Source: Rhodobiaceae bacterium (lineage in GTDB: Bacteria > Pseudomonadota > Alphaproteobacteria > Rhizobiales > Aestuariivirgaceae). From it: DNA of 64,000 bases. Under the pieces are notes generated by a model. It was not told where the DNA came from. It saw only the letters and a program-made list of their open reading frames with translations, and searched no databases. Location: contig JANNXN010000028.1 in assembly GCA_031409595.1 (NCBI GenBank), positions 948-64,947 of the forward strand, read 5' to 3'. Below are positions 7,710 through 27,595 of the stretch, piece after piece (position 1 is the first letter of the stretch; each line of letters starts with the position of its first letter). Position numbers and translations under genes: made by a program.

Positions 7710-8495
7710 TCAGCCCCAATTCCCCCGTTCGGCATCTTGCGGCATCTGGGCCGGCTGCCGATGCATGAACGCATCTGAATGCACTGTTATCTGCCCGCCA
7801 TTCAAATGCACAATCGAATACATCGGCGGCTCGTCACTATAGACAGTGGACACTGATCCCCCCACCAATGGCAGCTGGTGATTAAGGCTAGGAAGTGCGG
7901 AGAAAGAAATCCCCCGCCACTGTCCGGAAATCATGCGGTGCGCATGGCCGAAAAACAGGTGGCGCACATTGTATCCGGCAAGCAAGTCGCCAAAGCCTTC
8001 GCCATCTTCCAGTTTGATGGCGTCCATCAACACATGATGAATATCAAAAGGCGGATGGTGCATGAAAATGAGGACAGGCCTATCACCAGCTTCAGCCAGC
8101 TGCGCCCTCAACCATTCACGCCGTGGCTCATCATAGCGGCCAGCGGAAGAGGGGCCAACTTTGAGCGTGTCCAAAAACAAGAAACAATAGTCGTCCCGGA
8201 CAAAACGCCCCTGCGTAACGCCGCCAAATACTTTTAGATAATTCGCACGGTCATCGTGATTGCCGAGCATCAGGTGCGTAGGGATGGAAAATTTTGTCAG
8301 CCGCTCCTTCAAGGCTACATAGGCCGCGATGTCTCCCAGATCAGTCAGGTCACCCGAAATTGCGCAGAAGGCCGCATCTCCGTGATTGCGTTCAATATCT
8401 CCGAGGCAAATGTCGAAGCGCTCAAACGGATCAAGTCCCCAGAGCTTTTCAGGCGGAGGCAAGAGATGAAGGTCAGTAAGATGGATAAATTTCAT
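7710..8495 (-). CDS. Calcineurin-like metallophosphoesterase (CpdA/GpdQ-like phosphodiesterase)
   Basis: All five metallophosphoesterase motifs are visible: LTDLHL, ISGDLTD, LGNHDD, FMHHPP, FFGHAH. Its ATG overlaps the upstream gene's TGA (ATGA at 8492-8495). Confidence 0.8.
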   Translation of the reverse strand: MKFIHLTDLHLLPPPEKLWGLDPFERFDICLGDIERNHGDAAFCAISGDLTDLGDIAAYVALKERLTKFSIPTHLMLGNHDDRANYLKVFGGVTQGRFVRDDYCFLFLDTLKVGPSSAGRYDEPRREWLRAQLAEAGDRPVLIFMHHPPFDIHHVLMDAIKLEDGEGFGDLLAGYNVRHLFFGHAHRMISGQWRGISFSALPSLNHQLPLVGGSVSTVYSDEPPMYSIVHLNGGQITVHSDAFMHRQPAQMPQDAERGNWG

Positions 8496-10171: not shown

Positions 10172-10177
10172 ATTAGT

Positions 10178-11614
10178 TCACTGCGGCCATGGCAATGACC
10201 ACGTTTTCACGTTGGTGAAAAACTTCATGGCTTCCATGACACCCTCTTTTACACCATTACCTGAGTCCTTGATTCCCCCAAAGGGCGACATTTCGATGCG
10301 GTAACCCGGCACCTCCCAAATGTTCACGGTGCCTACGTTGAGGCCCTCAATGAACCGCGTGATGCGAGACAAGTTGTTGGTGCAAACGCCCGACGACAAT
10401 CCGAAGGGCGTTGAATTCGAAATGCGGATAACTTCGCCGTCTTCGTCGGGCACCCGAACGATGGGGATGATCGGGCCAAAGGTTTCCTCAAAAACCAGTT
10501 CTGAGTGATGCGGCACAAAATCAACGGTGATCGGCGGCAACACCGCGCCCTTCCGGCCCGGATTATAAAGTATCTTGGCCCCTTGCTCTGCCGCCTTGTG
10601 AACACGGGCCTCAAACACCTTCGCGGCTTCTTCATGCACCACGCAACCCAGATCAGTGTCCGGATCTTCCGGATCGCCAAACTTTATCTTCTTGGCCTTC
10701 TCCAAAACCAGTGCCACAAATCTGTCTGCCACCCGGTTCTGCACCAGAATGCGCTTCACCGCCGTGCACCGCTGGCCTGAATTCCTGGTGGCGCCAGCAA
10801 CTGCCAAGTCAGCAGCCCTGTCCAAATCATCGTCACTGAGATCATTGAGAATGATCAGCGGATCGTTGCCGCCCAATTCCAACGCAGCCCGCCGGTATCC
10901 AGCCTTGGCCGCAATGATCTTTCCCACGCGCACCCCGCCTGTAAACGTGATGATGCCGATGTTGCTGTTGGTCACCATCTCATCGCCAATGTCATCGGGC
11001 CAACCCGTCACCACTTGAAACATTTCAGGCGGCAAACCTGCATCGTAAAGAATATCAGCCAGCGCCAAAGCCGTGAGCGGTGTCAGTTCCGTAGGCTTGC
11101 ACACCACGCAATTATTTGTGGCAATGGCAGGGGCCACTTTGTGAGACACCATGTTGAGCGGATGATTGAACGGCGTAATCGCTGAAATCACCCCCACAGG
11201 CTCGCGCTTGGTAAAAATCTTTCGGGCCTTGCCTTGCGGAGTGAGATCGCATGAGAAAATCTGTCCGTCATCCAGAATGCAGAGTTGCCCCGCTAGCATG
11301 AACACGTCATAGGCACGCCCACATTCGTAAACCGAGTCCTTCATGGAAAGGCCGAGTTCAAGCGTAATCAATTTTGCAAGATTGTCCTTGCGCTGGCGAA
11401 TAAGTTCAGCCGCCTTGAACAATATCTGCTGGCGCTCATAGCGCGTGAGTTTCGGCTTGAAGCCCGCCGCAATATCAAATGCGCGTGCCGCATGTTCAGC
11501 GCGACCGGCTGGAACCGTGCCGATGATTTCATTGGTGTAGGGATAATGCACCGGCACCACGCCATCAGCATCCACCAACTTGCCGCCAATGCGCATGCTC
11601 TCTTTGATTGTCAT
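10178..11614 (-). CDS. phnY: Phosphonoacetaldehyde dehydrogenase (NAD-dependent aldehyde dehydrogenase family)
   Basis: ALDH motifs LELGGNDP and GQRCTAVKR (catalytic Cys). It sits immediately downstream of phnA. I prefer ATG 11614 ([11 protein letters not shown]), 1 nt after the phnA stop, over the track's TTG 11629. The symbol is assigned by context with phnW/phnA. Confidence 0.75.
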
Positions 11615-11615
11615 G

Positions 11616-12854
11616 TCAGGTCTCACCAATGCAGTTGCAGCCTATGAAGAAGGCATCGAAATTTCGAAGCGGTTGCGGCAAATCTTTCAGCTTGCGGTTG
11701 GCGATGACTGGAACAGTTTGTTCCGTCAAACCGCCATGCGAGCGCAAAGGTTCCGTCAACCCTGTAAGATCATGCCTGGAGCGGCTTGTGCCAATGACTT
11801 TTGAACCACTGGGTCCACCAGATAACACAATGAGATCACCCATCCGGTCCGGCGGAAGTTCAAATCGCGCGCAACCCTCAGCCCGGCCATAAACCTCGTC
11901 AATTCCCTCTATCGCTGAAATCACCGACGCAACCCGATCAGGGTGCAGGCCCTTGACATAGACAGTGGCAAACGAACCCAGCGCCCCGTGATGCACCACA
12001 TAAGGATCAGTGATCGGCAATATGACCCGCGTTGTGCCTGTGCCAAACTCAAGGTCGAGCCTATCCTGCAGGTAAACCACGTCAGGTTCACCAATGCTCA
12101 AGTGCTTATCTTTCATGCCGTGATCGGCAACGATAATTATGGTGGCCCCCAGGCCATCAAGCTGGCCGAGATAGCCATCCATCATCCTGTAAAAACTGTT
12201 GGCCCCGGCGGAACCCGGCGCAAACTTGTGTTGCACATAATCCGTTGTCGAAAGATACATGAGATCGGGCCGCATCGAACCCAGCAGTTTCACACCCGCG
12301 GCAAAAACAAATTCCGAAAGTTCAGCAGAATAGACAGGGGGCACCGGCATTCCAACCAGGCCGCAAACATCTTCAATGCCATTCTCCGCAACCGAGACCT
12401 GGTCTGCCCGCTCGGATGAAAAGGCGACTGCCGTGCCATCAAACTTCAGTCCTTTGCCCAATAATAATCGGAGCTTGTCCTTGGCCGTCACCACCGCAAT
12501 TTTAGCCCCCGCCTGTTGGAACTTTTCAAAGATCGTGGGCGCCCGCAGCCAAGCCGGGTCATTCATCATGGTTTCTTTGCCCGTGGCGGGATCAATCAGG
12601 TAATTCCCGCAAATCCCGTGCACGGCAGGCGGCGTTCCGGTCACAATCGAGAGATTGTTGGGATTGGTGAAACTTGGAATGACCGACAGCCCGCGCAGGT
12701 TTTCGCCTTTGGCAATGATTTTCTTGAGGTTTGGCATCAGCCCTTCGGCCATGGCAATTTCCATGTAGTCAGGCTCGCTGCCATCGCAGCAAATAACCAC
12801 CAGCGGCGCTCGCGGCCACTTGTAATTCCTGCCATTTGCCTCGACAGTTTTCAT
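11616..12854 (-). CDS. phnA: Phosphonoacetate hydrolase (alkaline-phosphatase superfamily)
   Basis: 412 aa. The stretch [13 protein letters not shown]...[28 protein letters not shown] closely matches my recollection of the conserved N-terminal block of characterised phosphonoacetate hydrolase. Confidence 0.85.
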
Positions 12855-12857
12855 GGT

Positions 12858-14009
12858 TCAGCTTTCAAGCGGCGCGACGTCAGTTACATTCATTTCGTTC
12901 AGCACGTCACGAATGGCCGCAAGCGCTGCGTCCATGACGGCTTCATCAATCTGCCCGATCGTGCCAATGCGAAAGCTTGGCCGCTTGGTGAGCTTGCCCG
13001 GATAAATTGCAAAGCCGCGCTTGCGGAGCGCCTCGTAGAATGCTTCGAAATGAAAGTTGGGGTCGCGCGGTGTCAGGAATGTTTGAATGATGGGCCCCGC
13101 CATATCATCCCCAAGCAGCGTCGAAAACCCCATCCTGCGCATGCCATCGATGAGGACATCGGCATTGCGGGCATAGCGGAGGCCACGCCCAGCCACGCCG
13201 CCGTGAATCTCGTGTTCCTTGAGCGCTTGATGAAAAGCCACCAGTGCATGGGTGGGTGGCGTAAACCGGAATTGGCCATTGGCCTGAAGCCCGCGCCACT
13301 GCTCGTAAAGGTCAAGCACCACCGAATGCGAAACGCCCGCACTTGCCTCCAGCATATGGCGCTTCACCAGCACATAGGAAAATCCCGGAACGCCTTCGAT
13401 GCATTTGTTGGAGGATGACACCATCACGTCCATATCCAGCCCCGCCATGTCGATGGGAATGGCGCCGAATGACGACATGGCATCCACCATGAACACCAAT
13501 CCGCGGCGCTTCACTTCCTGGCCTATTTCGGCGATGGGATTGACTATTCCAGACGTGGTTTCGCAGTGGATCATCCACACGTGACTGATTGACCCGTCGG
13601 CATCGAGTGCAGAAGTCACGTCCTCAACACTTGGAGCCGCACTATCGCCTCTGTTGATCTTGACGTGCGGGCGATTCAATTGTTTCAGGATTTTGGCGGC
13701 CCGATCGCCATAAGCGCCATTGGCAATCACCAGCGTCTTGCGGCTCAGAGGTGGGCACAGGCTGCCCAAGGCCGCCTCAATGGCAAAGGTGCCGGACCCT
13801 TGCATGATCACGCATTCATAGCGCCCGTCGCAATTGGCCAACTCCAGCAGGCGCTTGCGAATATCAGCCACCACCTGCCGGAATTCAACATCGCGCGAAC
13901 CCCAGTCAGCCAGCATGGCAAGCTTTACGCCGCGTGAAGTTGTCAGGGGGCCGGGCGTCAGCAAATAGGGCATATCCTCTTGGCCGACCGGACCCTTGAA
14001 TGATGTCAT
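12858..14009 (-). CDS. phnW: 2-aminoethylphosphonate--pyruvate transaminase (class V aminotransferase)
   Basis: YLLTPGPLTTS opening and class-V fold length. ATG 14009 has GGAGG 5-9 nt upstream (the track starts at TTG 14021). It is followed by phnA after a 3-nt gap. Confidence 0.85.
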   Translation of the reverse strand: MTSFKGPVGQEDMPYLLTPGPLTTSRGVKLAMLADWGSRDVEFRQVVADIRKRLLELANCDGRYECVIMQGSGTFAIEAALGSLCPPLSRKTLVIANGAYGDRAAKILKQLNRPHVKINRGDSAAPSVEDVTSALDADGSISHVWMIHCETTSGIVNPIAEIGQEVKRRGLVFMVDAMSSFGAIPIDMAGLDMDVMVSSSNKCIEGVPGFSYVLVKRHMLEASAGVSHSVVLDLYEQWRGLQANGQFRFTPPTHALVAFHQALKEHEIHGGVAGRGLRYARNADVLIDGMRRMGFSTLLGDDMAGPIIQTFLTPRDPNFHFEAFYEALRKRGFAIYPGKLTKRPSFRIGTIGQIDEAVMDAALAAIRDVLNEMNVTDVAPLES

Positions 14010-14023
14010 TGTCGCCTCCAAAC

Positions 14024-14911
14024 CTAGTTCAACTTCGCCGCAAGAACGGCTTCGATGTTGGCCTTGTGGACAGCCTCATAGGGCTCAAACAAATTCACCC
14101 AGCCCGCATCAAGCGGCCCCCTGATGATTTCGTTCAGCGGCATTGACCTGAGCTCCGGCTCGTTCGCCATGCGCTTCAGCATGCGAATATATTGCTGCGT
14201 GGCACGGATAAGGGTTTTTTCATATCCACCCAGCGCAATAATTTCCGGGTCGCCATGATTAGGCAAAATCCGTTCCGGTTGCAGCGCCCACATCCTGTCC
14301 AAATCCTTCAAGTGTACGTCAAATTCAAGCAGCTCGCCCACATAGGTAATCGTGTCTTCCATCGTATCGCCGGCAAGCAGTATTCTTTCAGCGGCAATCC
14401 AGATGACAGTTGCGTCGTCGCTATGAATATTCGCCTCGATCAAATGCAGCCGCAATGAGCCAACTTGCAGGAACATTTCGCCTCCAAAAACTTGCGTCGG
14501 CATGACCAGCGGGTTGATTGCGGGCAGGCCATGATGGCTGCCATCTTCAATCGCAGCCTTGCATTCCTTCATATGGTTTTCTGTGCGCAAGTTCGAAATG
14601 ACCTGGCAATCCGCAAAAGCGGAGGTTCCTGCAAGATGATCGAGGTGCCAATGGCTCAAGACCACGGTAATTTTGCCAACGCCCAAAGCCTCAAGATGCG
14701 CGCGAATGAATTTCCCGTGTTCAACTGAGACATGCGTGTCGTAGACAATTGCCTCGCCCGAATCGACTATCGCATAACTCGCAATGCCCAGAGCAATGGC
14801 GCCGTCATCAACCCAGTTATCGGCTTCTGAAAACCGGTAGCCGTCCACGCGACCATCATAATAGGCATAGATAGTCTTGCTCGGTTGGAGAACCCGCATA
14901 TGTTTTGTCAT
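14024..14911 (-). CDS. MBL-fold metallo-hydrolase; first gene of the phn operon
   Basis: HxHxDH motif (SHWHLDHLAGT). The track ORF starts at GTG 14983. ATG 14911 (MTKHMRVLQ...) is more likely, because the Cys-rich 24-aa extension looks non-native. Its stop is 2 nt before the phnW TTG and 14 nt before the phnW ATG. Confidence 0.75.
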   Translation of the reverse strand: MTKHMRVLQPSKTIYAYYDGRVDGYRFSEADNWVDDGAIALGIASYAIVDSGEAIVYDTHVSVEHGKFIRAHLEALGVGKITVVLSHWHLDHLAGTSAFADCQVISNLRTENHMKECKAAIEDGSHHGLPAINPLVMPTQVFGGEMFLQVGSLRLHLIEANIHSDDATVIWIAAERILLAGDTMEDTITYVGELLEFDVHLKDLDRMWALQPERILPNHGDPEIIALGGYEKTLIRATQQYIRMLKRMANEPELRSMPLNEIIRGPLDAGWVNLFEPYEAVHKANIEAVLAAKLN

Positions 14912-14998
14912 AATCAGGTTATGGCAGAAAAAACCACACTGGCAAACTCCACCGAATACTGCGATACTGCAAAGGTCGGCCACTCGGGAGAATGAATT

Positions 14999-19674: not shown

Positions 19675-20655
19675 ATGGAATATGTGAAACTTGCAACCAC
19701 CGGACTTGATGTGTCGCGCCTGTGTCTGGGCTGCATGAGTTATGGCGAGCCCAATCGCGGCAGCCATGAATGGACATTGGGCGAGGATGCCGCGCGCCCC
19801 TTCATCAAGCGCGCCCTCGAACAGGGCATCAATTTTTTCGACACCGCAAACATATATTCCGATGGCAGCAGCGAAGAGATCGTCGGCAAAGCGCTGAAAG
19901 ATTTTGCCAGGCGCGAGGAAGTGGTGATCGCCACCAAAGTGCATGGCCGTATGCGTGCGGGCCCCAACGGCGCTGGCCTGTCACGCCGCGCCATCATGTC
20001 TGAAATCGACAATAGCTTGCGACGCCTCGGAACTGACCACGTTGATCTCTACCAGATTCACCGGTGGGATCACGAAACACCCATCGGCGAAACCATGGAA
20101 GCGCTGCATGATGTGGTGAAGGCCGGAAAGGCCCGTTACATCGGAGCATCATCCATGTTCGCCTGGCAATTTTCCAAAGCCAATCATGTAGCCGAGGAAA
20201 ACTGTTGGACCCGTTTCGTCAGCATGCAAAACATGGTGAACCTCATTTACCGCGAAGAAGAACGCGAAATGCTGCCGCTGTGCAAGGCGGAAGGGATCGC
20301 CGTTTTGCCATGGAGCCCGCTGGCCCGCGGCAAACTTGCCCGCAGTGGCGATACCGCCACCAACCGCTCGACAACTGACGCCTATTCGAAAACTCTCTTC
20401 GCCAAAACCGGGGATGCCGACCGGAAAGTGGTCGAAACCGTTGAAACCGTGGCCAGGAAGCGCGCCATTCCAATGGCGCAAGTGGCGCTTGCATGGGTAT
20501 TGTCAAAACCCGGCATCACATCACCCATCATCGGTGCAACCAAACCCCAACATCTCGACGATGCCATCGCTGCCCTGGCGCTGAAGCTAACCGCCGAAGA
20601 AGTGAGCGCATTGGAAGCGCCATACATTCCGCACGCAGTTGTCGGGTTTTCTTAA
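19675..20655 (+). CDS. Aldo/keto reductase
   Basis: 326 aa. Blocks GINFFDTANIYSDGSSEEIVGKAL and IGASSMFAWQF are typical of the AKR family. Confidence 0.85.
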   Translation: MEYVKLATTGLDVSRLCLGCMSYGEPNRGSHEWTLGEDAARPFIKRALEQGINFFDTANIYSDGSSEEIVGKALKDFARREEVVIATKVHGRMRAGPNGAGLSRRAIMSEIDNSLRRLGTDHVDLYQIHRWDHETPIGETMEALHDVVKAGKARYIGASSMFAWQFSKANHVAEENCWTRFVSMQNMVNLIYREEEREMLPLCKAEGIAVLPWSPLARGKLARSGDTATNRSTTDAYSKTLFAKTGDADRKVVETVETVARKRAIPMAQVALAWVLSKPGITSPIIGATKPQHLDDAIAALALKLTAEEVSALEAPYIPHAVVGFS

Positions 20656-20670
20656 CACAACTAGCCCCCA

Positions 20671-20702
20671 ACCGTTATTTCCGCGCACGCGGGACTGACG
20701 GT
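20671..20702. repeat. Single REP-like unit (TTCCGCGCACGCGGG variant), probably also a bidirectional terminator
   Basis: ACCGTTATTTCCGCGCACGCGGGACTGACGGT has outer ACCGT/ACGGT arms and an inner CCGCG-N2-CGCGG stem. It resembles the 17621-17645 unit and lies between convergent genes. Confidence 0.5.
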
Positions 20703-20735
20703 TGTATTCTAGTGTCAATCTAACTTGATCGCCAT

Positions 20736-21701
20736 CTAGCCCATCTTCCGCAAGTATTCTTCACATAGCCCGATTGTTCCCTCGGTGTAGGGAAGGCCCA
20801 TGGATTTGGCGAGGTCGGTTTCGGCGTGTGAGCCGATCCATGCCACCAGCAACAGGCGGCGGAACATGACGAAGGTTGGAATTTCGTCTTCGTCGGCTTT
20901 CGGCAAATTTCCGGCTTTGCGGTAACCAGTTTTCCAGGCCTCGATCAAGTCTGGAACCTGGGGTTCGTGTTCATAGAACGAAACGGGTGTTGCTGCGTCA
21001 TACATGTACCAGCCGAAGCCGCAATCATCGAAGTCGATGACCTTTACCTGGTCACCATCGATCAGCAGATTGGCGAGGCGGAGATCGCAATGGATGAGGC
21101 CGAAGCGTTCGTTGGCCTGCCCGTACGCGTTCAATCTCGTGCCGATGAGATCCACCGTGCGCTGGAACAGTTTGGACTTTTCTGCATCCACACCCATGCC
21201 ATCACGCCAGCGGCCCCAGTGGGGTTTGGTGTCACCCAGAGCGGTTTCAAAATTCCAGGTGAAGCGCTCGAAATAGGAGGGGCGCTGCCAGCCCCGCGCG
21301 TGGGCATGCATGCGGGCGGTGACTTCGCCGAGAATTTCAAATGGTTTGATGAGGTCATGGTCAATGCCGGGTTCGGAGCCTGTCTCCCAGTCTGACAGCA
21401 CAATGTAGCGGCCAGAGACCTCCTGAATGATTTCACCGTTTAAGCCTTTGACTGGCTCAGGGGTCACAACAACACCGCTTTTGCGCAAATCCATGAGCCA
21501 AGCGAGTTCTGAAGCAATTGCCGCTTTGGTGTGATAGCCGGCGCGGTGAATGCGAAGTGCCCGGCGTTGACCGTCGGGCGCTTCAACCTTGTAGGTGGCA
21601 TTCTCGGAAAGGTTGATCATCTGGACATCAAGGTGATCTGGCAGCGCGTAATTTCCCGTGGCACTTTTAGCCAGCGCCAACAATTCATCCAGGTCTGTCA
21701 C
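20736..21701 (-). CDS. APH-fold kinase (aminoglycoside/choline/ethanolamine kinase superfamily); candidate amino-alcohol kinase of the BMC operon
   Basis: Catalytic loop HCDLRLANLL and metal-binding VIDFDDCGFGW. It is the last gene of the BMC operon, 12 nt after the upstream shell gene. Confidence 0.8.
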   Translation of the reverse strand: MTDLDELLALAKSATGNYALPDHLDVQMINLSENATYKVEAPDGQRRALRIHRAGYHTKAAIASELAWLMDLRKSGVVVTPEPVKGLNGEIIQEVSGRYIVLSDWETGSEPGIDHDLIKPFEILGEVTARMHAHARGWQRPSYFERFTWNFETALGDTKPHWGRWRDGMGVDAEKSKLFQRTVDLIGTRLNAYGQANERFGLIHCDLRLANLLIDGDQVKVIDFDDCGFGWYMYDAATPVSFYEHEPQVPDLIEAWKTGYRKAGNLPKADEDEIPTFVMFRRLLLVAWIGSHAETDLAKSMGLPYTEGTIGLCEEYLRKMG

Positions 21702-21713
21702 GCTCTCTGTCCC

Positions 21714-22367
21714 CTAGTTGTCCCGCCCGGTGATTGATGCCAGAACAGCTTCGATCCTCGCAAGGCCTTGGCGAACATTATCTGTGGCGCCAGACATGTA
21801 AAGCCTGCCCGCCGCACCAATCATTTGAACATCCACAAGGGTGAGGCCAGGTGCTGCCTTTTCGGCCTCATTGGCGGCAATGGCTGCATAAAGGGCAGGG
21901 ACCATTTCGCAGATCAACAAGGTTTCACCTGGCAGGATCATGGACGCCTGGCGGTTGCGATTGATGATCACGGCGTGCTGGTCTGCCACGTCCTCAATGA
22001 CATCAGTATAGAGGATTTTTGGTTTGAGCTGATCGCCCGCACTGAGGCCCAGCCCGTTCAGCATCGCCTCGCCGGCTGCCAACAATTTTTCCTTGTCGCT
22101 GCCGTGAATTTCGAGAATGCCGAACTGCCGTTCGACGAACAGGATGCCGGGTTCCAGATCGGGGTCTGCCTTGAGGGCCAAGTCAATCACCCGCTCAATC
22201 ATCAGGCCGGGTGCGACCTCGATGATAAGGGCGTGCTGCCCCGCGTAGGGGGGATACCCCCGCGCGCGGGTTGGTGTGCCGAGATAGGCGGCAAATTGCG
22301 GTTGCAGAGTCTCCAATGTCAGGTAGACCCGCAAGTCGCCCTTTGCGAACTTCCGTTCAGAAACCAC
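21714..22367 (-). CDS. Tandem-domain BMC shell protein (BMC-T, CsoS1D/CcmP-like)
   Basis: 217 aa, GTG start. Two BMC-domain-like halves (IIEVAPGLMIERVIDLALKAD... and LICEMVPALYAAIAANEAEKAAPG...). The N-terminal LRVYLTLETLQPQFAAYLGT block is shared with its 199-aa paralogue. Confidence 0.8.
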   Translation of the reverse strand: MVSERKFAKGDLRVYLTLETLQPQFAAYLGTPTRARGYPPYAGQHALIIEVAPGLMIERVIDLALKADPDLEPGILFVERQFGILEIHGSDKEKLLAAGEAMLNGLGLSAGDQLKPKILYTDVIEDVADQHAVIINRNRQASMILPGETLLICEMVPALYAAIAANEAEKAAPGLTLVDVQMIGAAGRLYMSGATDNVRQGLARIEAVLASITGRDN

Positions 22368-22377
22368 GTTTCAGGCT

Positions 22378-22662
22378 TTACTTGGATGAGCCGGAGGTAA
22401 AGTGTTTGGAAACGTCGGCGTGGGGGCGAGGGATGACGTGAACTGAAACCAGCGTGCCAACCTGGCCTGCCACTTCAGCGCCTGCTTCGGTTGCGGCTTT
22501 GACCGCTCCTACGTCGCCGTTGATGATCACGGCTACCAGGCCGTCGCCAACTTCTTCGCGGCCAATAATTGTGACGTTGGCTGCCTTCACCATGGCATCA
22601 GCGGCGGCGAGGGCTGCCACGTAACCTCTGGTTTCGACCATTCCAATTGCATTGCTCGACAT
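22378..22662 (-). CDS. BMC-H hexamer shell protein (PduA/EutM/CcmK family)
   Basis: [26 protein letters not shown]...[15 protein letters not shown]...VHVIPRPH is the textbook Pfam BMC-domain sequence. 94 aa. Confidence 0.95.
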
Positions 22663-22685
22663 TTTAGTTTCTCCTTTGTTGAAAG

Positions 22686-22937
22686 TTACTTTCCGGAAGC
22701 TTCGTCGATTGAGCCGATAATCAGGGCATCAATCGGGGGAGCCTTGCCTGGAAACCATGAGGCGGCAACGGAGCCCGTTGCCACAATTACTTTTTCGCCA
22801 TCGCCGCAACCCAGCGGATCGAAGGCCAGCATGCGGGCGCTGGTTTCATCAACCTGCACTTCAAGAATTGTGCCGGTTGGAACTTCGCCCAGTTTTTTGG
22901 TGGACCAGATGCGGCCTGTGACAGTTGCTTTCAGCAT
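22686..22937 (-). CDS. BMC-P pentamer vertex protein (EutN/CcmL/PduN family)
   Basis: 83 aa. [15 protein letters not shown]...[19 protein letters not shown]...[10 protein letters not shown] matches the EutN/CcmL pattern. Confidence 0.9.
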
Positions 22938-23302
22938 CAGCTTTTCCTTTCAATCTTGAGACCGAGCTTGCGGGCCTTATCGCGCGCCAGCGGGGTCAAT
23001 ACGGCGGTGGGGCCTAAAAGAAGTATTCCCTTGGGCGCCATGGTGGAAATTTTTTGTTCGGTGATGACACCTTCGAGAATTTCGCCTGTGGACTGGTGGC
23101 TCGCCTGCCCAAGCGTGAAGCGGAGTTTTCCAGCGCGAACGGATTCGATGACGCCGGGTGCTGCCAGGCGGTTGACGAAGGCTTGCAGCTCTGCATCGTT
23201 GCCAACCCTGACGCTTTCCGTGCCTGTGGAGCGTGATGCCAAGGCTTCCCGCAACACCTCGCGCACGAGGCCACGGAGTTCGGTTGAGGTTTCGGGTTTC
23301 AT
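22937..23302 (-). CDS. BMC-operon protein of unknown function with an N-terminal encapsulation-peptide-like helix
   Basis: 121 aa. It overlaps both neighbours (by 4 nt at its start and 1 nt at its stop). The N-terminal amphipathic helix TELRGLVREVLREALA is followed by a Ser/Thr/Gly linker and a ~90-aa domain ending LLLGPTAVLTPLARDKARKLGLKIE. Confidence 0.6.
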   Translation of the reverse strand: MKPETSTELRGLVREVLREALASRSTGTESVRVGNDAELQAFVNRLAAPGVIESVRAGKLRFTLGQASHQSTGEILEGVITEQKISTMAPKGILLLGPTAVLTPLARDKARKLGLKIERKS

Positions 23303-23898
23303 TGTCCAAGAGCCTGTTCTGCTGCACCGGCGGCGGCTTTTACTTCTGATTCAGAGCCGGAGAGGTAGAGCCTGCCCGTGGCGCCGATCATGCGGTAATC
23401 AACGATCTTTATGTTTGCGGCTTTTTCCGCCGCGTTGGAAGCAAGGATAGCGTAGGCGGCGGGCTCGGTTTCGAGAACGAACAGCGTTTCGCCGGCGAGG
23501 ATCATGGAGCCGCCCTTGTTACGATTGATCAGGAACGCGTGGTTGGGATCAATGCGGGTGATGATTTTCGATGCCAGAATCTTTGGCGGCATGGCATCGC
23601 CGGAAGACTTTCCGAGCGCGTTCAAGACGGCTTCAGCGGACGCCTTGACGGCAGCAATGTCACGTGAATGGATTTCGAGATATCCGAACTGGCGCTCCAC
23701 CACGAGTATGCCACCCTGAACATCGGCCTCCTTCAAAGCGATATCAGTGAGCGCTTCGATATCGAGGCCCGGGGCCACTTCAATGATTTGTGCGGCCATG
23801 TTGCGGCGGGGCAGCGAACCTTTGATCCATGAACCCAGATAGCACATGGTCTGCGGTTGCAGCTGGTCGAGGAATATGAATGAGCGAAGAGTTGCCAT
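23299..23898 (-). CDS. Tandem-domain BMC shell protein (BMC-T, CsoS1D/CcmP-like), paralogue of 21714..22367
   Basis: 199 aa with two BMC-domain halves (IIEVAPGLDIEALTDIALKEAD... and LFVLETEPAAYAILASNAAEKAAN...). N-terminal LRSFIFLDQLQPQTMCYLGS block. Confidence 0.8.
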   Translation of the reverse strand: MATLRSFIFLDQLQPQTMCYLGSWIKGSLPRRNMAAQIIEVAPGLDIEALTDIALKEADVQGGILVVERQFGYLEIHSRDIAAVKASAEAVLNALGKSSGDAMPPKILASKIITRIDPNHAFLINRNKGGSMILAGETLFVLETEPAAYAILASNAAEKAANIKIVDYRMIGATGRLYLSGSESEVKAAAGAAEQALGQ

Positions 23899-23901
23899 GG
23901 T

Positions 23902-25407
23902 TTATGCCGCGAGGACCGCGTTCAACTCCTCAAGAATTATTTTGCGGAGTTCGCGGCGGAGTTCATCAGCGTCGGAATTGCTGACGGCGAGTGCCACCGG
24001 CGATTTCGCGACTTTGGGCAGGTTCAATGGATCAAGGCCGGCAAAATTACCGAAGGCTTCTTCCCTGTTGTAGGCAATGCGGGAAAATTGAACGAGGTGG
24101 TGCGGTGTCAAATTTTCACTGAGCGAAGATCCGCCCACGAAACCTGTGCCAATTGTCATTGACGGACCCAAATGCGTTTCATAGCCAGAAGCGCCCAGCG
24201 AGCAACCGGCATTCACAGCCACGCGCAAAGCGGGGAGGGCGGCGGCAAAGGCCATGATGTTGGACTCGTTCCTGGAGTGAATTGCCGCCGAATGACCGCG
24301 ACCGGAATTCCGCATCATGGAGCGGGCCGAGGAAATGGCCTGATCGATATTGCTGACGCGCGCGAACGCCAGCACGGGCGCAAGCTTTTCGCGCACCAGT
24401 TTTTCCTCAGGCTGGACGAGATCAACCGGCGTCACCAGTATTTTGGCGTTGCCAGCGCTGAAGCCTGCTGCCTTGGCAATAACTGCGGCATCCTTGCCGA
24501 TCATGGAAATGTTGAAGCCTGTTCCCGTGAACAGAAGATCGCGAAGTTTGCCGGTTTCTTCGGAACTGCAGATATGGGCGCCTTCCGATTTCAGTGCCGA
24601 GAGGAGTGTGTCCGCGATGTTGGCGAAGGCCAGCACTACCGACTCATTGGTGCACAGAATGGAGTTATCGAAGGCCTTCGAGGCAACAATGCGTTTTGCT
24701 GCCAATTTCGTGTCAGCCGTGTCATCAACCAGCACCGGTGCATTGCCGGGGCCAACGCCGAAGGCTGGATTGCCAGAGCGGTAGGCGGCTTTGACAACTG
24801 ATGGCCCCCCTGTTGCAATCACCAGATCAATGCGCTCATCGGCGATGAGTTTTTCGATGAGTGGAATATTGGGTTCATCCAGCACCTGGATGATGCCATC
24901 AGGAGCGCCGGCTGCTTTTGCAGCTTCCGCCAGCATGCGTGCAGCATCAGCGCAACAGGCTTTGGCGCCAGGGTGGGGCGAGAGGATGATGGCGTTTCTG
25001 GTCATCAAGGCGAGAATGGTTTTGAAATAAACCGTGGCGACCGGATTGGTGACCGGAATGAGAGCGAATATCACGCCCGCGGGGCGGGGCAATTCAACGA
25101 TCTTCTTGGCGGCATCAATATGGGGGCCGACGAAATCTTCGGTGGCATAGGTTTCGGCCAGGCCCTTTGAGCAGGCCTCATTCTTCAGTTTCTTGTGTGT
25201 CACAACGCCCATGCCAGTTTCGCGCACGGCCCATTCGGCATAGTGCTGGGCTTTGGCGTGGGCCGCGGCTGCCACTGCATTTACAATGCGCTGTGTTGCC
25301 GTGCGGTCGAGCTTCTGAAATTTACTGGCGCCCCAGCGGGCGCGCTCCAGCATCATGCGAGCTTGTTCGAGGGCGGCGTCTGGAATTTTAAGAAGAACAT
25401 CACTCAT
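23902..25407 (-). CDS. CoA-acylating aldehyde dehydrogenase (PduP/EutE-like) with a C-terminal encapsulation-peptide-like helix
   Basis: 501 aa. Blocks PVTNPVATVYFKTILALMTRNAIILSPHP, ATGGPSVVKAAYRSGNPAFGVGPGNAP and catalytic ILCTNES match the EutE/PduP/AdhE-N family. The C-terminus is DADELRRELRKIILEELNAVLAA. Confidence 0.9.
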   Translation of the reverse strand: MSDVLLKIPDAALEQARMMLERARWGASKFQKLDRTATQRIVNAVAAAAHAKAQHYAEWAVRETGMGVVTHKKLKNEACSKGLAETYATEDFVGPHIDAAKKIVELPRPAGVIFALIPVTNPVATVYFKTILALMTRNAIILSPHPGAKACCADAARMLAEAAKAAGAPDGIIQVLDEPNIPLIEKLIADERIDLVIATGGPSVVKAAYRSGNPAFGVGPGNAPVLVDDTADTKLAAKRIVASKAFDNSILCTNESVVLAFANIADTLLSALKSEGAHICSSEETGKLRDLLFTGTGFNISMIGKDAAVIAKAAGFSAGNAKILVTPVDLVQPEEKLVREKLAPVLAFARVSNIDQAISSARSMMRNSGRGHSAAIHSRNESNIMAFAAALPALRVAVNAGCSLGASGYETHLGPSMTIGTGFVGGSSLSENLTPHHLVQFSRIAYNREEAFGNFAGLDPLNLPKVAKSPVALAVSNSDADELRRELRKIILEELNAVLAA

Positions 25408-25408
25408 G

Positions 25409-26689
25409 TCAGTTCACCTTGCCGAGGTTATGCAGCAGTTCGCGGGCACGCGGCATAGAGGCGTCGAAGCGATCAAGAATTTCATGACACATGCCAGCAC
25501 TCAGCAGAACGCCGGGCTTCCATTGCAGCACACGCTTGTCGAGAGATGAGAATATGGCCCAAACGCCATTTTCATAAAGGGCGCGGGAAACTGATACAGC
25601 ACCTTCGGGATGATTGAATTCAAGACCGAGGATCACGCCTTTCTGGCGCACGCCGGTGAAGATGTCGCCATGGCGGTCCATCATGTCTTTCATGCCGTCG
25701 CGGAAAAATTCGGTGACGCTGTGAACATTGGCGATGGTTTCTGGCCGCAACAGCATTTCGATCACTTTATGCGCCACGATGCAGCCGAGTTCGGCGCCGC
25801 CTGAGGTGCTGATGTGGGCAGCGCCATCCTCATTCAGCCATTCCCCCGCTTTATCATTCACCAGGCAGGCGCTGATGGGATAGAGGCCGCCGGACAGGCC
25901 CTTCGCCGTCACCATGATGTCGGGTTGAATGCCGTAGGCCTGCCAGCCCCACATGGAGCCCGTGCGCATCAAGCCGGTTTGCACTTCATCGGCGATGTAC
26001 ATGGCGCCATGTTTTTCGCACAGCGCCTTGCAGGCATTGAGGTAGCCCTCTTTTGGCATGGGAAAGCCATAAGTTGCCGGAATGGTTTCCATGATGAGAG
26101 CGGCCACATCATTTCCCCTGAGTGCCGCTTCCATGGCAGTGATATCATTGAAAGGCACCTGTATAAATGTTTCAGGCTGGTCACTCAGGAATATCTTGGT
26201 GAAGCGGTCATCACCTGTAGCAACGGCCAAGCCCGAATGGCCATGATAGCCCTTGATGATGGAGACGATCTTGCGGCGCTTGGTGGCGTAGCGTGCACTT
26301 TTGATGGCGATATCGACGGCTTCCGCACCACCTGGGGCAAACACCGCATATTTCATGCCGGGCGAAATATTAATCAGGGATTCGGCCAAAGCGGAACGGG
26401 CGACAGATGGGAACCAGTGGTTACCCATATCGAAATAGTCGAGGGCGCCTTTGAGGGTTTCCACCAGTTCCGGGTGGCGATGGCCAAAATTATAGGTGCC
26501 GCCGTTGAGATGGAGGTCGATGAGCCTGCGGCCGCTCATGTCATAGAGGTTGTAACCCTCGCGCCGGTCGATGACGAGATCAATGCCGGCCTTTTGCCAG
26601 AACTTGGTCTTATCCGGATTCCAATAGCGGATGGCCTTGTCAAAGAGATCCTGTTTCGAGTCAAACCGGAAATGACCGTAATCAAACAT
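25409..26689 (-). CDS. Class-III aminotransferase-fold PLP enzyme; candidate O-phospho-amino-alcohol phospho-lyase, first gene of the BMC operon
   Basis: Blocks YNFGHRHPELV, ADEVQTGLMRTG and PLP-lysine context DIMVTAKGLSGG. ATG 26689 (MFDYGHF...) has GGAG 8 nt upstream (the track starts at TTG 26695). Its stop is 1 nt from the AldDH start. Confidence 0.85.
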   Translation of the reverse strand: MFDYGHFRFDSKQDLFDKAIRYWNPDKTKFWQKAGIDLVIDRREGYNLYDMSGRRLIDLHLNGGTYNFGHRHPELVETLKGALDYFDMGNHWFPSVARSALAESLINISPGMKYAVFAPGGAEAVDIAIKSARYATKRRKIVSIIKGYHGHSGLAVATGDDRFTKIFLSDQPETFIQVPFNDITAMEAALRGNDVAALIMETIPATYGFPMPKEGYLNACKALCEKHGAMYIADEVQTGLMRTGSMWGWQAYGIQPDIMVTAKGLSGGLYPISACLVNDKAGEWLNEDGAAHISTSGGAELGCIVAHKVIEMLLRPETIANVHSVTEFFRDGMKDMMDRHGDIFTGVRQKGVILGLEFNHPEGAVSVSRALYENGVWAIFSSLDKRVLQWKPGVLLSAGMCHEILDRFDASMPRARELLHNLGKVN

Positions 26690-26711
26690 TAACAACTCCT
26701 GCAGACCAGAA

Positions 26712-26815
26712 TATGCCCGACTTAAAACATTTTATGATGGAAGCACAGCATTTTACTGTTGTCAAGTGGGCAATTATTGACTAATTAACACAAATTATGT
26801 ATGAAGTCGGGCATA
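26712..26815. promoter_or_regulatory. Divergent BMC/deoR control region bounded by a perfect 12-bp inverted repeat (TATGCCCGACTT ... AAGTCGGGCATA)
   Basis: The arms lie at 26712-26723 and 26804-26815. Between them are sigma70-like candidates: TTGACT-N17-TATGAA on the + strand (26778-26806) and TTGACA-N17-TTCCAT on the - strand. Each arm sits just upstream of a start codon, so both mRNAs would begin with AAGTCGGGCATA. Confidence 0.45.
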
Positions 26816-27595
26816 ATGGAAAAACTTGATCCCAAGTTGAACAAAAGTGACCGCCAGGCGCGCATCGTGACGGAATTGCGTGGTGCACCCACGTTGCGGG
26901 TGAATGAACTGGGTTTGAGGCTCAATGTGTCAACTGAAACTGTTCGGCGGGATCTGGCGGAATTATCAGAGCGGGGCCTCATCAACCGGACATATGGCGG
27001 GGCCATGCGGCCCCTCAGTTTTGAGCCCGCACTGATCGAGCGCGAGGCCCTGATGGTGGTTGAGCGCGAGCTGATTGCCGGGGTTGCGGTCAAGCTGGTT
27101 GAGGACAATGACATTCTGATGATCGGTGGCGGCGCCACAACCCTGCATTTCGCCCGGAGGCTGGCTGCGGAACGCAATCATATCACGGTCATAACCCACG
27201 CGTTTTCGATTGCCATGGCGCTGGCTACAAATCCTTTGCATAAAGTATTGATGCTGCCTGGGCAGTATGACGGTCGCGAAGGGTTGATTCATGGGCCGGA
27301 CACTATCGACGCGCTGCAGCGGTTTCATGCCAGCAAGGCGTTTCTCGGCGCCAGCGGACTTACCCCTGAAGGCCCCAATGATGCGGGCATTGGCCCCGGC
27401 CTCATTTATGGGGCGATGATGCGGCGTTCGGCGCAAACCATTGTTTTGGCGGATCGCAGCAAGTTTGATCGGCCTTCTCTTTCTGTCTATGGCCAGTGGT
27501 CATCTGCAACAACGTTGGTTTCAGATGCGCAGCCTAAGGGCGAACTTGCAGCAGCACTCGAGGCAAGTGATGCCAAATTTTTATTGGCCGACTAA
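26801..27595 (+). CDS. DeoR-family transcriptional regulator, divergent from the BMC operon
   Basis: N-terminal wHTH (RQARIVTELRGAPTLRVNELGLRLNVSTETVRRDLAELSERGLINRTYGGA) plus a DeoR C-terminal sugar-phosphate-sensor-like domain. The start may be ATG 26816 (MEKLDPK) if the TATGAA -10 candidate is real. Confidence 0.85.
   Translation: MKSGIMEKLDPKLNKSDRQARIVTELRGAPTLRVNELGLRLNVSTETVRRDLAELSERGLINRTYGGAMRPLSFEPALIEREALMVVERELIAGVAVKLVEDNDILMIGGGATTLHFARRLAAERNHITVITHAFSIAMALATNPLHKVLMLPGQYDGREGLIHGPDTIDALQRFHASKAFLGASGLTPEGPNDAGIGPGLIYGAMMRRSAQTIVLADRSKFDRPSLSVYGQWSSATTLVSDAQPKGELAAALEASDAKFLLAD

Follow-up and report, generated by a model that had tools for sequence, protein, structure and literature searches.

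What does the microcompartment encoded in this alphaproteobacterial DNA metabolize, and does it belong to a known type? In the window (the whole 64,000-nt stretch that was analysed), the ORF list and profile searches placed eight tightly packed genes on the minus strand from 26689 down to 20736, encoding, in order, a PLP enzyme, an aldehyde dehydrogenase (AldDH), a first tandem shell protein (T1), a 121-aa protein (U121), BMC-P, BMC-H, a second tandem shell protein (T2) and a kinase, with a DeoR gene divergent from them (Table 1). The successive junctions measure +1, +3, -4, -1, +23, +10 and +12 nt, in agreement with the initial annotation, which had described eight same-strand genes with junctions from a 4-nt overlap to a 23-nt gap and a divergent DeoR gene. 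The motifs it had quoted, ILCTNES in AldDH, VHVIPRPH in BMC-H (with the PRPH interface motif) and HCDLRLANLL...IDFDD in the kinase, were all present in the translations, and the cckA-recA-alaS genes it had placed nearby were found from 28619 onward, the first as a CckA-like hybrid kinase. Its expected Pfam families were likewise recovered (PF00202, PF00171, PF00936, PF03319 and PF01636), but T2 missed the Pfam BMC profile and was recognized by an NCBIfam model instead.

Table 1. Positions, strands and supporting matches of the operon, its regulator and their parts
Feature	Position	Strand	Support
APH-fold small-molecule kinase	20736..21701	-	PF01636 2e-26; PDB 6EF6 E 8e-82
Second BMC-T (T2), double-stacking type	21714..22367	-	NCBIfam CcmP 1.6e-56
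BMC-H hexamer	22378..22662	-	PF00936 3e-27
BMC-P vertex pentamer	22686..22937	-	PF03319 8e-16
U121, 121-aa RMM-specific protein without family assignment	22937..23302	-	position expected for MSMEG_0274
U121 N-terminal EP-like helix, residues ~7-24	23231-23284	-	alignment
First BMC-T (T1), double-stacking CcmP/CsoS1D-like tandem BMC	23299..23898	-	PF00936; NCBIfam CcmP 8.8e-65
CoA-acylating aldehyde dehydrogenase (AldDH), 501 aa	23902..25407	-	PF00171; NCBIfam acylating-type matches
AldDH C-terminal encapsulation-peptide (EP)-like amphipathic helix DELRRELRKIILEELNAVLAA, ~residues 481-501	23905..23967	-	motif comparison
Class-III aminotransferase-fold PLP enzyme, 426 aa	25409..26689	-	PF00202 7e-71
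Divergent regulatory region	26690..26800	.	one inverted-repeat arm + conserved operon-proximal block
DeoR-family transcriptional regulator	26801..27595	+	PF08220 HTH_DeoR 1.2e-15; PF00455 DeoRC 3.7e-37

These assignments identify the locus as a genuine bacterial microcompartment operon, carried by a soil or water alphaproteobacterium (Hyphomicrobiales) whose best named matches are to Aestuariivirga. When the remaining large ORFs of the 64 kb were scanned with Pfam, none proved to be a B12 lyase or dehydratase, a glycyl-radical enzyme, RuBisCO or a carbonic anhydrase, as the initial annotation had also concluded, and none was a PTAC, Fe-ADH, short-chain dehydrogenase (SDR) or APC permease, nor an enzyme that recycles NAD+ or CoA. 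The operon probably encodes an amino-alcohol metabolosome of the RMM/AAUM family (the Rhodococcus-Mycobacterium microcompartment, alias aminoacetone-utilisation microcompartment, first described in Mycobacterium), in which a kinase, a phospho-lyase and AldDH would act in sequence under DeoR control, without the SDR and transporter.

The best PDB matches of five of the eight proteins, the kinase and the four shell proteins, fall one-to-one on RMM proteins of M. smegmatis, which for the shell proteins shows orthology to solved structures of the RMM shell. T1 matched 5L39, 'RMM microcompartment shell protein MSM0275' (E 7.5e-84), T2 matched 5SUH, MSM0271 (E 7.2e-88), BMC-P had 5L37, MSM0273, as its only PDB match (E 3.2e-29), and the best natural match of BMC-H was 5L38, MSM0272 (E 7e-41); each is assigned on these matches as the ortholog of the respective protein. 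A protein identical to T2 additionally carries a precomputed PF27545 CsoS1D_N match. The kinase aligned with 6EF6 over residues 8-319, including the catalytic HxDLRxxN and IDFDD motifs, and is identified by this alignment as the ortholog of MSMEG_0269, reported to be the M. smegmatis (S)-1-amino-2-propanol kinase, 6EF6 being the aminopropanol kinase structure. Mallette and Kimber (2018) is the key paper on that enzyme.

AldDH, the ortholog of MSMEG_0276, resembles acylating enzymes, matching the NCBIfam AdhE N-terminal domain (3.7e-123) and EutE-type (2e-112) models, and the acylating acetaldehyde dehydrogenase 5J78 in the PDB (3e-90 over residues 4-450). Beyond this catalytic-domain match, which stops at residue 450, a low-complexity linker leads to the C-terminal EP-like helix, and in 17 of the 17 BMC loci compared a variable Pro/Ala-rich linker precedes a (D/E)xLRxE(I/L)RxhhhEEL helix; C-terminal EPs are known from type I BMC AldDHs (PMC8217296). 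A similar helix was found at the N-terminus of U121, which in alignment consists of this helix, a variable linker and a conserved C-terminal motif, AVLTPLARDxARxLGLKIER. Profile searches of U121 gave neither a Pfam nor an NCBIfam match, and its AF2 model (pLDDT 73.5) gave no fold match against the PDB (best E 0.035, TM 0.33). A homolog search yielded 503 candidates, 463 of them with E <= 0.001, and among the best 120 of the 503 nearly all source-named ones are labelled 'hypothetical protein'. The U121 homolog lies between T1 and BMC-P in 20 mapped BMC loci and is undetectable in two, L020 and L023.

On sequence grounds the PLP enzyme is the signature enzyme of RMM loci and orthologous to MSMEG_0277, sharing 62% identity with its positional counterpart in Mycobacterium loci; the ORF list starts it at an upstream TTG (26695), and public gene calls give 426 aa. 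We presume that it is an O-phospho-amino-alcohol phospho-lyase. Its kinase partnership is family-wide: the two genes lie side by side in non-BMC loci of Mesorhizobium, Rhodobiaceae, Bacillota and Actinoplanes, and a natural fusion joins both domains in one polypeptide (P0123). In a rough NJ tree the kinase- and BMC-associated enzymes group apart from three distant unassociated aminotransferases, with several unassociated sequences also placed among them; the clade to which the PLP enzyme itself belongs is entirely BMC- or kinase-associated. The literature search documented phospho-lyase activity for no member of this PLP-enzyme family.

A different role has been published for the same RMM locus type by Axen 2014 and Ravcheev 2019 (PMC4207490, PMC6620236), whose 'Aut' model has a true aminotransferase convert 1-amino-2-propanol to lactaldehyde, or aminoacetone to methylglyoxal, with AldDH then yielding lactyl-CoA or pyruvyl-CoA and the kinase serving elsewhere, e.g. 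on the acyl product or a different substrate. The nearest solved relatives of the PLP enzyme are indeed real transaminases (PigE, putrescine aminotransferase and acetylornithine aminotransferase), as are its best NCBIfam similarities, and it keeps their catalytic Lys, PLP-binding Asp and C-terminal Arg, so that the sequence alone leaves room for transamination. However, its scores stay under the thresholds of all NCBIfam transaminase equivalogs, and the class-III loop EPIQGEGG, whose QGEGG holds the glutamate found in dual-substrate transaminases, is replaced by ETIPATYGF (ETIPATxGF throughout the family). Moreover, the locus encodes no amino-acceptor regeneration, the title of the 6EF6 paper names the orthologous kinase an aminopropanol kinase, and the pairing of kinase and PLP enzyme persists far outside BMC loci. 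Altogether, we consider the transaminase route unlikely.

The phospho-lyase route, which the initial annotation had put forward, remains the best current model, well supported by gene association and the natural fusion, and biochemically unproven. In this route, DeoR would keep the operon repressed in the absence of an amino alcohol or its phosphate; the APH-fold kinase, judging by its M. smegmatis ortholog, would use ATP to phosphorylate 1-amino-2-propanol, and possibly ethanolamine; the PLP enzyme would release phosphate, ammonia and propionaldehyde (or acetaldehyde) from the O-phospho amino alcohol; and AldDH, with NAD+ and CoA, would produce propionyl-CoA (or acetyl-CoA). The shell, which combines a single BMC-H and a single BMC-P with two distinct double-stacking BMC-T proteins, would enclose the aldehyde step, with the AldDH C-terminal helix, and probably also U121, recruiting cargo. 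Relative to 86%-identical non-BMC Mesorhizobium proteins, the PLP enzyme and the kinase show no terminal extension specific to BMC loci, which leaves the shell entry of the aldehyde-producing enzyme unexplained. This counts against the model, as does the absence of NAD+ and CoA recycling enzymes.

The divergent DeoR gene has counterparts at the equivalent position in two close relatives, L086 (80% identity) and L085. A 19-nt inverted repeat, 89% complementary, has its arms at 26712-26730 and 26797-26815, the second overlapping the DeoR start, and an operon-proximal block, TTGACA..GCTGTGCTT..CATCATA..GTCGGGCA..GGAG, is common to the DeoR-type relatives L085 and L086. A consensus promoter scan found 3 candidates against 3.1 expected, not above chance, so the operator and promoter roles of these elements are only inferred.

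As the initial annotation had noted, the usual accessory dehydrogenase and permease are missing: no SDR or permease is linked to the operon within the 64-kb window. An aldo-keto reductase neighbour is native to the flank and no replacement. The same DeoR and eight-gene unit occurs together with an orthologous SDR (55-57% identity with the mycobacterial RMM SDR) and a transporter in L085 and L086, whose PLP enzymes are 92% and 88% identical to the one here, so the missing genes do not define the metabolosome variant that had been suggested; their absence is a lineage-specific trim. Since the SDR-keeping sister loci are 72-92% identical in kinase, PLP enzyme and shell, the SDR loss is recent and need not alter specificity. 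With no SDR at hand to reduce aminoacetone, this organism most likely takes the amino alcohol itself as its entry substrate, provided that the rest of its genome does not encode such an SDR.

The same absence could instead point to a B12-independent ethanolamine metabolosome in an SDR-less lineage, an alternative offered by the initial annotation, running from ethanolamine through phosphoethanolamine and acetaldehyde to acetyl-CoA. Such a C2 substrate would take identical chemistry, AldDH is nearest to acetaldehyde-type acylating enzymes, and the R. jostii RHA1 RMM locus adjoins a gene annotated as an ethanolamine permease; nevertheless, the window holds no linked ethanolamine transporter and the sister loci keep the aminopropanol-dehydrogenase ortholog, making this reading rather improbable. 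That the locus is a decaying remnant, its pathway no longer working after SDR and transporter loss, is barely credible: the operon island does lie at a synteny breakpoint, and the nearest relatives' accessory genes are missing, as are 9 residues in the N-terminal region of the kinase and a 6-residue loop, both present in its closest orthologs, but the eight ORFs show tight operon spacing and, like the regulator, are intact, catalytic motifs and the promoter-proximal block are conserved, the architecture is the same in two independent assemblies, and a 100% identical PLP enzyme occurs on 17 independent public contigs, each with an identical operon.

Amino-alcohol use remains our preferred reading, and the RMM type recognized by the initial annotation from its kinase, aminotransferase-fold enzyme and AldDH agrees with both PDB matches and gene order, which place the locus in the RMM/AAUM family with the mycobacterial (RMM1-type) core order. 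RMM/AAUM loci are assigned to amino-alcohol use (PMC11346464, PMC6787980), and the Rhodococcus cluster is induced by 1-amino-2-propanol according to work cited in PMC4207490 and PMC6620236. The initial annotation had found no match to a characterised system, yet the operon is collinear, protein for protein and order for order, with the M. smegmatis MSMEG_0269-0277 core, in which msmeg_0269, msmeg_0276 and msmeg_0277 are keyed as APH, AldDH and class-III aminotransferase (PMC8217296). The identical order recurs in Mycobacterium, Mycolicibacterium and seven other actinobacterial loci, and L020, one more from this group, differs only in lacking U121, whereas a GntR/UTRA regulator, as in Mycobacterium locus L003, occupies the place in actinobacterial RMM loci that DeoR fills here. 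Nor is such a locus new to Alphaproteobacteria, contrary to what the initial annotation had implied: Sutter et al. 2021 catalogued 140 RMM1 and 32 RMM2 loci (PMC8217296, Supplementary Data 2 and 4), assigning RMM1/AAUM1 to 'Actinobacteria and Proteobacteria' and placing RMM2/AAUM2 in Proteobacteria, with members including Bradyrhizobium, Pelagicola, Roseovarius and unclassified Alphaproteobacteria. The operon described here is a trimmed version, two accessory genes shorter, of a locus type already known in Alphaproteobacteria as well.

The operon was found exactly as the initial annotation had described it, as eight same-strand genes with junctions ranging from a 4-nt overlap to a 23-nt gap in the ORF listing, and profile searches assigned every family it had named for confirmation, i.e., BMC, EutN_CcmL, APH, Aminotran_3 and Aldedh. 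It had also seen no alternative signature enzyme, and a scan of the window's other large ORFs agreed, with no short-chain dehydrogenase or APC permease among them either. PTAC and alcohol dehydrogenase were sought as PF06130, PF01515 and PF00465, none of which occurred in any large ORF of the window, and no PF06751 or PF05985-type match to EutBC ethanolamine ammonia-lyase was found in any large ORF scanned, so that the locus does not qualify as a B12-dependent EUT locus. Beyond the divergent DeoR gene lie a CckA-like hybrid kinase, recA and alaS, and 17 public contigs carry the operon too, their PLP enzyme being 100% identical.

Genes of the operon and its regulator, with profile assignments and M. 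smegmatis matches in the PDB
Feature	Position	Strand	Profile assignment and remarks	M. smegmatis match (PDB; E-value)
PLP enzyme (class-III aminotransferase fold; 426 aa in public gene calls)	25409-26689	minus	Aminotran_3 PF00202, 7e-71; mechanical ORF reaches TTG at 26695	
AldDH (CoA-acylating aldehyde dehydrogenase)	23902-25407	minus	Aldedh pfam00171 and strong acylating AdhE/EutE-type NCBIfam matches	
First BMC-T	23299-23898	minus	BMC profile	MSM0275 (5L39; 7.5e-84)
121-aa protein	22937-23302	minus	no family in profile search	
BMC-P	22686-22937	minus	EutN_CcmL profile	MSM0273, sole PDB match (5L37; 3e-29)
BMC-H	22378-22662	minus	BMC profile	MSM0272 (5L38; 7e-41)
Second BMC-T	21714-22367	minus	CcmP-like, NCBIfam only	MSM0271 (5SUH; 7.2e-88)
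Kinase	20736-21701	minus	APH profile	aminopropanol kinase MSMEG_0269 (6EF6; 8e-82, full-length phmmer alignment)
DeoR regulator	26801-27595	divergent from operon		

The operon is a member of the known Rhodococcus-Mycobacterium or aminoacetone-utilisation microcompartment (RMM/AAUM) type; its gene order is RMM1-like, its regulator is a DeoR, and accessory genes have been trimmed in its lineage. The recognisable proteins each have their own counterpart in the M. smegmatis RMM/AAUM microcompartment, and every shell protein finds its best natural PDB match in its M. smegmatis RMM equivalent. The catalogue of Sutter et al. 2021 equates msmeg_0269 with the APH kinase, msmeg_0276 with the AldDH and msmeg_0277 with the class-III aminotransferase, and its Supplementary Data 2 gives a shell set made up of a single BMC-H, a single BMC-P and two different BMC-T(dp) (PMC8217296). 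This shell set is present in the window, together with an APH-family kinase orthologous to MSMEG_0269, an acylating AldDH of the msmeg_0276 type (recognised by family profiles and by a conserved C-terminal amphipathic helix of the encapsulation peptide, EP, kind), and a class-III aminotransferase-fold signature enzyme of the msmeg_0277 type, which groups with BMC-associated enzymes in a neighbor-joining (NJ) tree. The metabolosome core is incomplete, without PTAC or alcohol dehydrogenase, as expected of RMM/AAUM, and the locus has neither a linked amino-acid/GabP-type permease nor a GntR regulator, its regulator being DeoR.

RMM1 and RMM2 were defined by Axen et al. 2014 (PMC4207490). An 'Aut' pathway for aminopropanol/aminoacetone was reconstructed for the same cluster, as found in Actinobacteria, Firmicutes and Proteobacteria, by Ravcheev et al. 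2019 (PMC6620236). Sutter et al. 2021 list 140 RMM1/AAUM1 loci from various Actinobacteria and Proteobacteria and 32 RMM2/AAUM2 loci from a range of Proteobacteria, with Bradyrhizobium, Pelagicola, Roseovarius and unclassified Alphaproteobacteria among the names in their tree files (PMC8217296). The novelty initially claimed for the locus is thus largely lost, the type being already catalogued in Alphaproteobacteria (PMC8217296), though the part concerning characterisation stands, this being restricted to M. smegmatis and Rhodococcus. To a catalogue the locus adds little: its type dates back to 2014, has been characterised in part in M. smegmatis, and entered the proteobacterial listings in 2021. 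A plasmid collection searched for annotated proteobacterial RMM loci yielded just Rhodococcus jostii RHA1 pRHL2, whose RMM locus (L089, 5874-12804) contains a tandem duplicate of a BMC-T / hypothetical / BMC-P / BMC-H module with identical protein accessions and has an 'ethanolamine permease' gene nearby.

To place the locus within this type, the window proteins were mapped onto 80 related loci, a sample in which gene-order counts do not represent frequencies. Among the loci sampled, the window order (PLP enzyme, AldDH, first BMC-T, 121-aa protein, BMC-P, BMC-H, second BMC-T, kinase) was identical in Mycobacterium, Mycolicibacterium and seven further actinobacterial loci (L003, L004, L007, L013, L015, L017, L024, L025 and L040), and the actinobacterial L020 shared it without the 121-aa gene; this is the mycobacterial RMM1 core order. 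In L002, L009-L012 and L022, the kinase lies upstream of the PLP enzyme and the remaining genes follow in the same succession. Most of the alphaproteobacterial loci sampled (Paracoccaceae, Rhodospirillales, Dongia) have the kinase first, whereas in the window it comes last. RMM2 is described as having a 'different gene order' (Sutter 2021, PMC8217296), and from this phrase and the taxonomy we infer that the kinase-first order is the catalogue's RMM2, which is probably represented in the sample by these six loci and from which the window's order differs. In Cytobacillus sp. (L021, 10001-15400) the arrangement differs: BMC-H and BMC-P genes are found near a PLP enzyme of 58% identity, but the RMM AldDH, the BMC-T set and an adjacent kinase are missing. 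Here another BMC type may have borrowed the PLP enzyme, and EUT2x loci with an RMM1-type dehydrogenase have been listed in Bacillales (Sutter 2021, PMC8217296).

The accessory dehydrogenase and permease had been reported missing, and tblastn of the window bore this out at E <= 1e-10, both with aminopropanol/aminoacetone short-chain dehydrogenases (SDRs) from Mycobacterium (L003), Mesorhizobium (L081) and the two nearest DeoR-type relatives (L085 and L086), which left the window without a linked SDR, and with permeases from Mycobacterium, Mesorhizobium and the two nearest relatives. The absence had been read as marking a variant, but this reading does not hold, for both nearest relatives keep an SDR and a transporter: in L085 (PLP enzyme 92% identical), DeoR and the same eight genes are accompanied by a convergent SDR and an ABC transporter, and in L086 (88% identical) by an SDR and an APC permease. 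The SDRs of these two loci share 55-57% identity with the mycobacterial RMM dehydrogenase. Because L085 and L086 carry all of these genes, the absence is, judging by gene content, a lineage-specific trim and not a feature of the class, and the linked SDR is an ancillary RMM/AAUM gene outside the core.

The window, L085 and L086 present the operon in three different genomic contexts, and therefore the unit of DeoR and operon behaves as a movable island. The left flank (Na/Pi transporter ... LemA-DUF2207-ABCF-AKR, window 8.5-20.7 kb) is fully syntenic in two further loci, L087 and L088. Its last gene, an aldo-keto reductase (AKR, 19675-20655), fills the convergent slot held by the SDR in L085 and L086; we rejected it as an SDR replacement, as it belongs to a generic, widely conserved family (74-75% identity to Bacillaceae and Inquilinus proteins) and as L087 and L088 share the AKR flank with no BMC locus after it, which likewise marks the AKR as a native flank gene. 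The breakpoint of synteny between this flank and the island coincides with a switch in the sign of GC skew and a cumulative-skew minimum (window ~20500-21500), which could mark the origin or terminus of replication, or else the edge of an inversion or insertion. Within the flank, the minus strand of 8492-14983 carries clustered aldehyde dehydrogenase, PF01663 phosphodiesterase-type, class-V aminotransferase and metallo-beta-lactamase-fold genes, adjoining a Na/Pi cotransporter-PhoU fusion and a metallophosphoesterase and fully syntenic in L087 and L088; this cluster looks like a PhnW/PhnA/PhnY-type 2-aminoethylphosphonate degradation unit. At the other end of the operon, the intergenic region shared with DeoR is bracketed by a 19-nt inverted repeat (arms 26712-26730 and 26797-26815, 89% complementary), whose operon-proximal arm is conserved in L085 and L086 along with a TTGACA-containing block, and the repeat and block are a candidate DeoR operator and promoter. 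A scan of consensus promoters and terminators gave counts no higher than the shuffled expectation.

The PLP enzyme scored under the cut-off of each curated transaminase model (NCBIfam equivalogs), and the class-III EPIQGEGG loop is swapped in it for a family-conserved ETIPATxGF, with the Lys, Asp and C-terminal Arg kept, a change that is suggestive, not decisive, of a lyase over a transaminase. Its closest solved relatives are PigE, putrescine aminotransferase and acetylornithine aminotransferase, and none of its best 60 PDB matches is a phospho-lyase by name. The enzyme is 86% identical to a Mesorhizobium protein encoded in an SDR / PLP enzyme-kinase / SDR / permease arrangement (L081), with neither shell nor AldDH genes within 10 kb, and the pair is likewise adjacent in a Rhodobiaceae locus, L001 (PLP enzyme 82%, kinase 77% identity). 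Compared with its closest orthologs (L085, Mesorhizobium), the window kinase is shorter by about 9 residues close to the N-terminus and by a 6-residue loop. In a rough NJ tree without bootstrap, indicative only, shell-less members nested within BMC-associated clades and kinase adjacency reached distant Bacillota and Actinomycetota members; several sequences without nearby kinase or shell genes also fell among the kinase- or BMC-associated ones, and only three distant outgroup aminotransferases separated cleanly. This topology, which carries no support values, is consistent with secondary loss of the AldDH and shell module in some lineages. A natural fusion of the two enzymes also exists (P0123, AT-III and APH kinase, 795 aa), and adjacency, fusion and tree together support a functional coupling of kinase and PLP enzyme. 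Further fusions were seen among the P0123, P0124 and P0139 set, namely AT-III with DUF6206 (738 aa) and a NAD-binding/reductive-aminase-like domain with AT-III (830 aa). The shell-less Mesorhizobium cluster (L081, 1-21284, GCA_004016445.2) adjoins catechol-type dioxygenase genes and a B12-type diol/glycerol dehydratase (PF02286/PF02288/PF02287), recalling the diol dehydratase neighbours behind RMM2's old name 'RMM2/PDU2'.

A model running from kinase to PLP enzyme to AldDH was reportedly put forward by Mallette and Kimber in 2018, and this route is the best model for the window. The kinase would phosphorylate the amino alcohol, the PLP enzyme would turn the phosphate ester into aldehyde, ammonia and phosphate, and the AldDH would oxidise the aldehyde to acyl-CoA, with the shell confining the aldehyde; the pathway requires four different cofactors, and their recycling enzymes are not encoded. 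A role of the PLP enzyme as an O-phospho-amino-alcohol phospho-lyase is suggested by kinase adjacency and fusion, loss of QGEGG and the sub-cut-off transaminase scores. A true aminotransferase, as in the 'Aut' model, is conceivable from the sequence, but accounts poorly for the association with the kinase. An ethanolamine-specific pathway is compatible with the loss of the SDR from the window, but loses weight because the locus is so closely related to others that still have the SDR. That the operon is a decaying remnant is unlikely, given its intact ORFs, conserved motifs and identical copies in independent assemblies.

Two helices bear on how enzymes of this kinase-to-AldDH route might enter the shell. 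The AldDH catalytic domain ends near residue 450; beyond it come a linker and an amphipathic helix (DELRRELRKIILEELNAVLAA) that is conserved, being present in all 17 BMC loci compared. C-terminal EPs are found on type I BMC AldDHs (PMC8217296), and the helix fits such a peptide. The 121-aa protein, which has a homolog at the same position in 20 mapped BMC loci (exceptions L020 and L023), begins with a helix (ELRGLVREVLREALA) resembling the AldDH peptide, and continues with a variable linker and, in the alignment, an invariant AVLTPLARD..R.LGLKIER tail; a Foldseek search of the PDB with its AF2 model (pLDDT 73.5) gave nothing below E 0.035, with TM <= 0.33, and no fold was assigned. The PLP enzyme and kinase carry no extension over shell-less orthologs, encapsulation-type helices being restricted to the AldDH and this small protein. 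It is a reasonable guess that the 121-aa protein is a putative adaptor for encapsulation of the aldehyde-producing step, which, if true, would explain how the signature enzyme enters the shell without an EP. We regard as improbable the fuller proposal that the unit, lacking SDR and transporter, is a naturally minimal metabolosome that uses the amino alcohol directly, with the 121-aa protein as a hitherto unrecognised EP-bearing adaptor recruiting an extension-less phospho-lyase; if it were true, the substrate could be ethanolamine, and the route hence B12-independent.

The locus is useful as compact material for the biochemistry of the RMM/AAUM family, and its eight genes would make a handy minimal construct for shell and cargo experiments in heterologous hosts. 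Moreover, one narrow clade, with PLP enzymes at least 82% identical, contains the same pair of kinase and putative lyase with a shell (window, L085, L086) and without one (Mesorhizobium, Rhodobiaceae), a natural setting in which to compare a compartmentalised pathway with its free form.

Compared with known systems, the window shares with M. smegmatis MSMEG_0269-0277 (RMM1/AAUM1; Axen et al. 2014; Mallette and Kimber 2017, 2018; Sutter et al. 2021) the eight core genes and their order, a shell set with a single BMC-H, a single BMC-P and two distinct BMC-T(dp), an EP-like helix at the AldDH C-terminus, and the lack of both PTAC and alcohol dehydrogenase. Identities to the Mycobacterium locus L003 are 62% for the PLP enzyme, 54% for AldDH, 69% and 67% for the first and second BMC-T, 42% for the small unknown protein, 56% for BMC-P, 80% for BMC-H and 42% for the kinase. 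Unlike M. smegmatis RMM1, it has an alphaproteobacterial host, a DeoR in place of a GntR/UTRA regulator, no linked SDR, APC permease or alpha/beta hydrolases, and an unknown protein of 121 instead of about 170 aa, most of the Pro/Ala linker being missing. With RMM2/AAUM2 of Proteobacteria (Pelagicola, Roseovarius, Bradyrhizobium and others) it shares gene set and host class, and its shell proteins are slightly nearer to the presumed RMM2 loci than to actinobacterial ones (L009: first BMC-T 76%, second BMC-T 70%, BMC-H 81%, BMC-P 63%).

The non-compartmentalised clusters of Mesorhizobium and Rhodobiaceae, whose PLP enzymes are 82-86% identical to that of the window, differ from it in having no AldDH or shell genes and in having the PLP enzyme and kinase genes directly adjacent, exactly as if a six-gene module of AldDH and shell genes had been cut out of the window arrangement or added to produce it. 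The Mesorhizobium cluster keeps the same SDR ortholog and an APC permease, and its kinase aligns end to end with the window kinase, with no additional extension; a second M. smegmatis paralog pair is a further non-compartmentalised cluster of aminopropanol kinase and candidate phospho-lyase. Finally, in ETNPPL-type enzymes the class-III aminotransferase fold serves as a lyase acting on O-phospho amino alcohols by 1,2-elimination, with an APH-fold kinase as partner. Such AGXT2L/ETNPPL ethanolamine-phosphate phospho-lyases, both eukaryotic and bacterial, are said to have been described by Veiga-da-Cunha et al. in 2012 and by Schiroli et al. They resemble the proposed window enzyme in fold and kinase partner, but the window enzyme lies on a different class-III branch, and its lyase function, if real, probably evolved independently of theirs.
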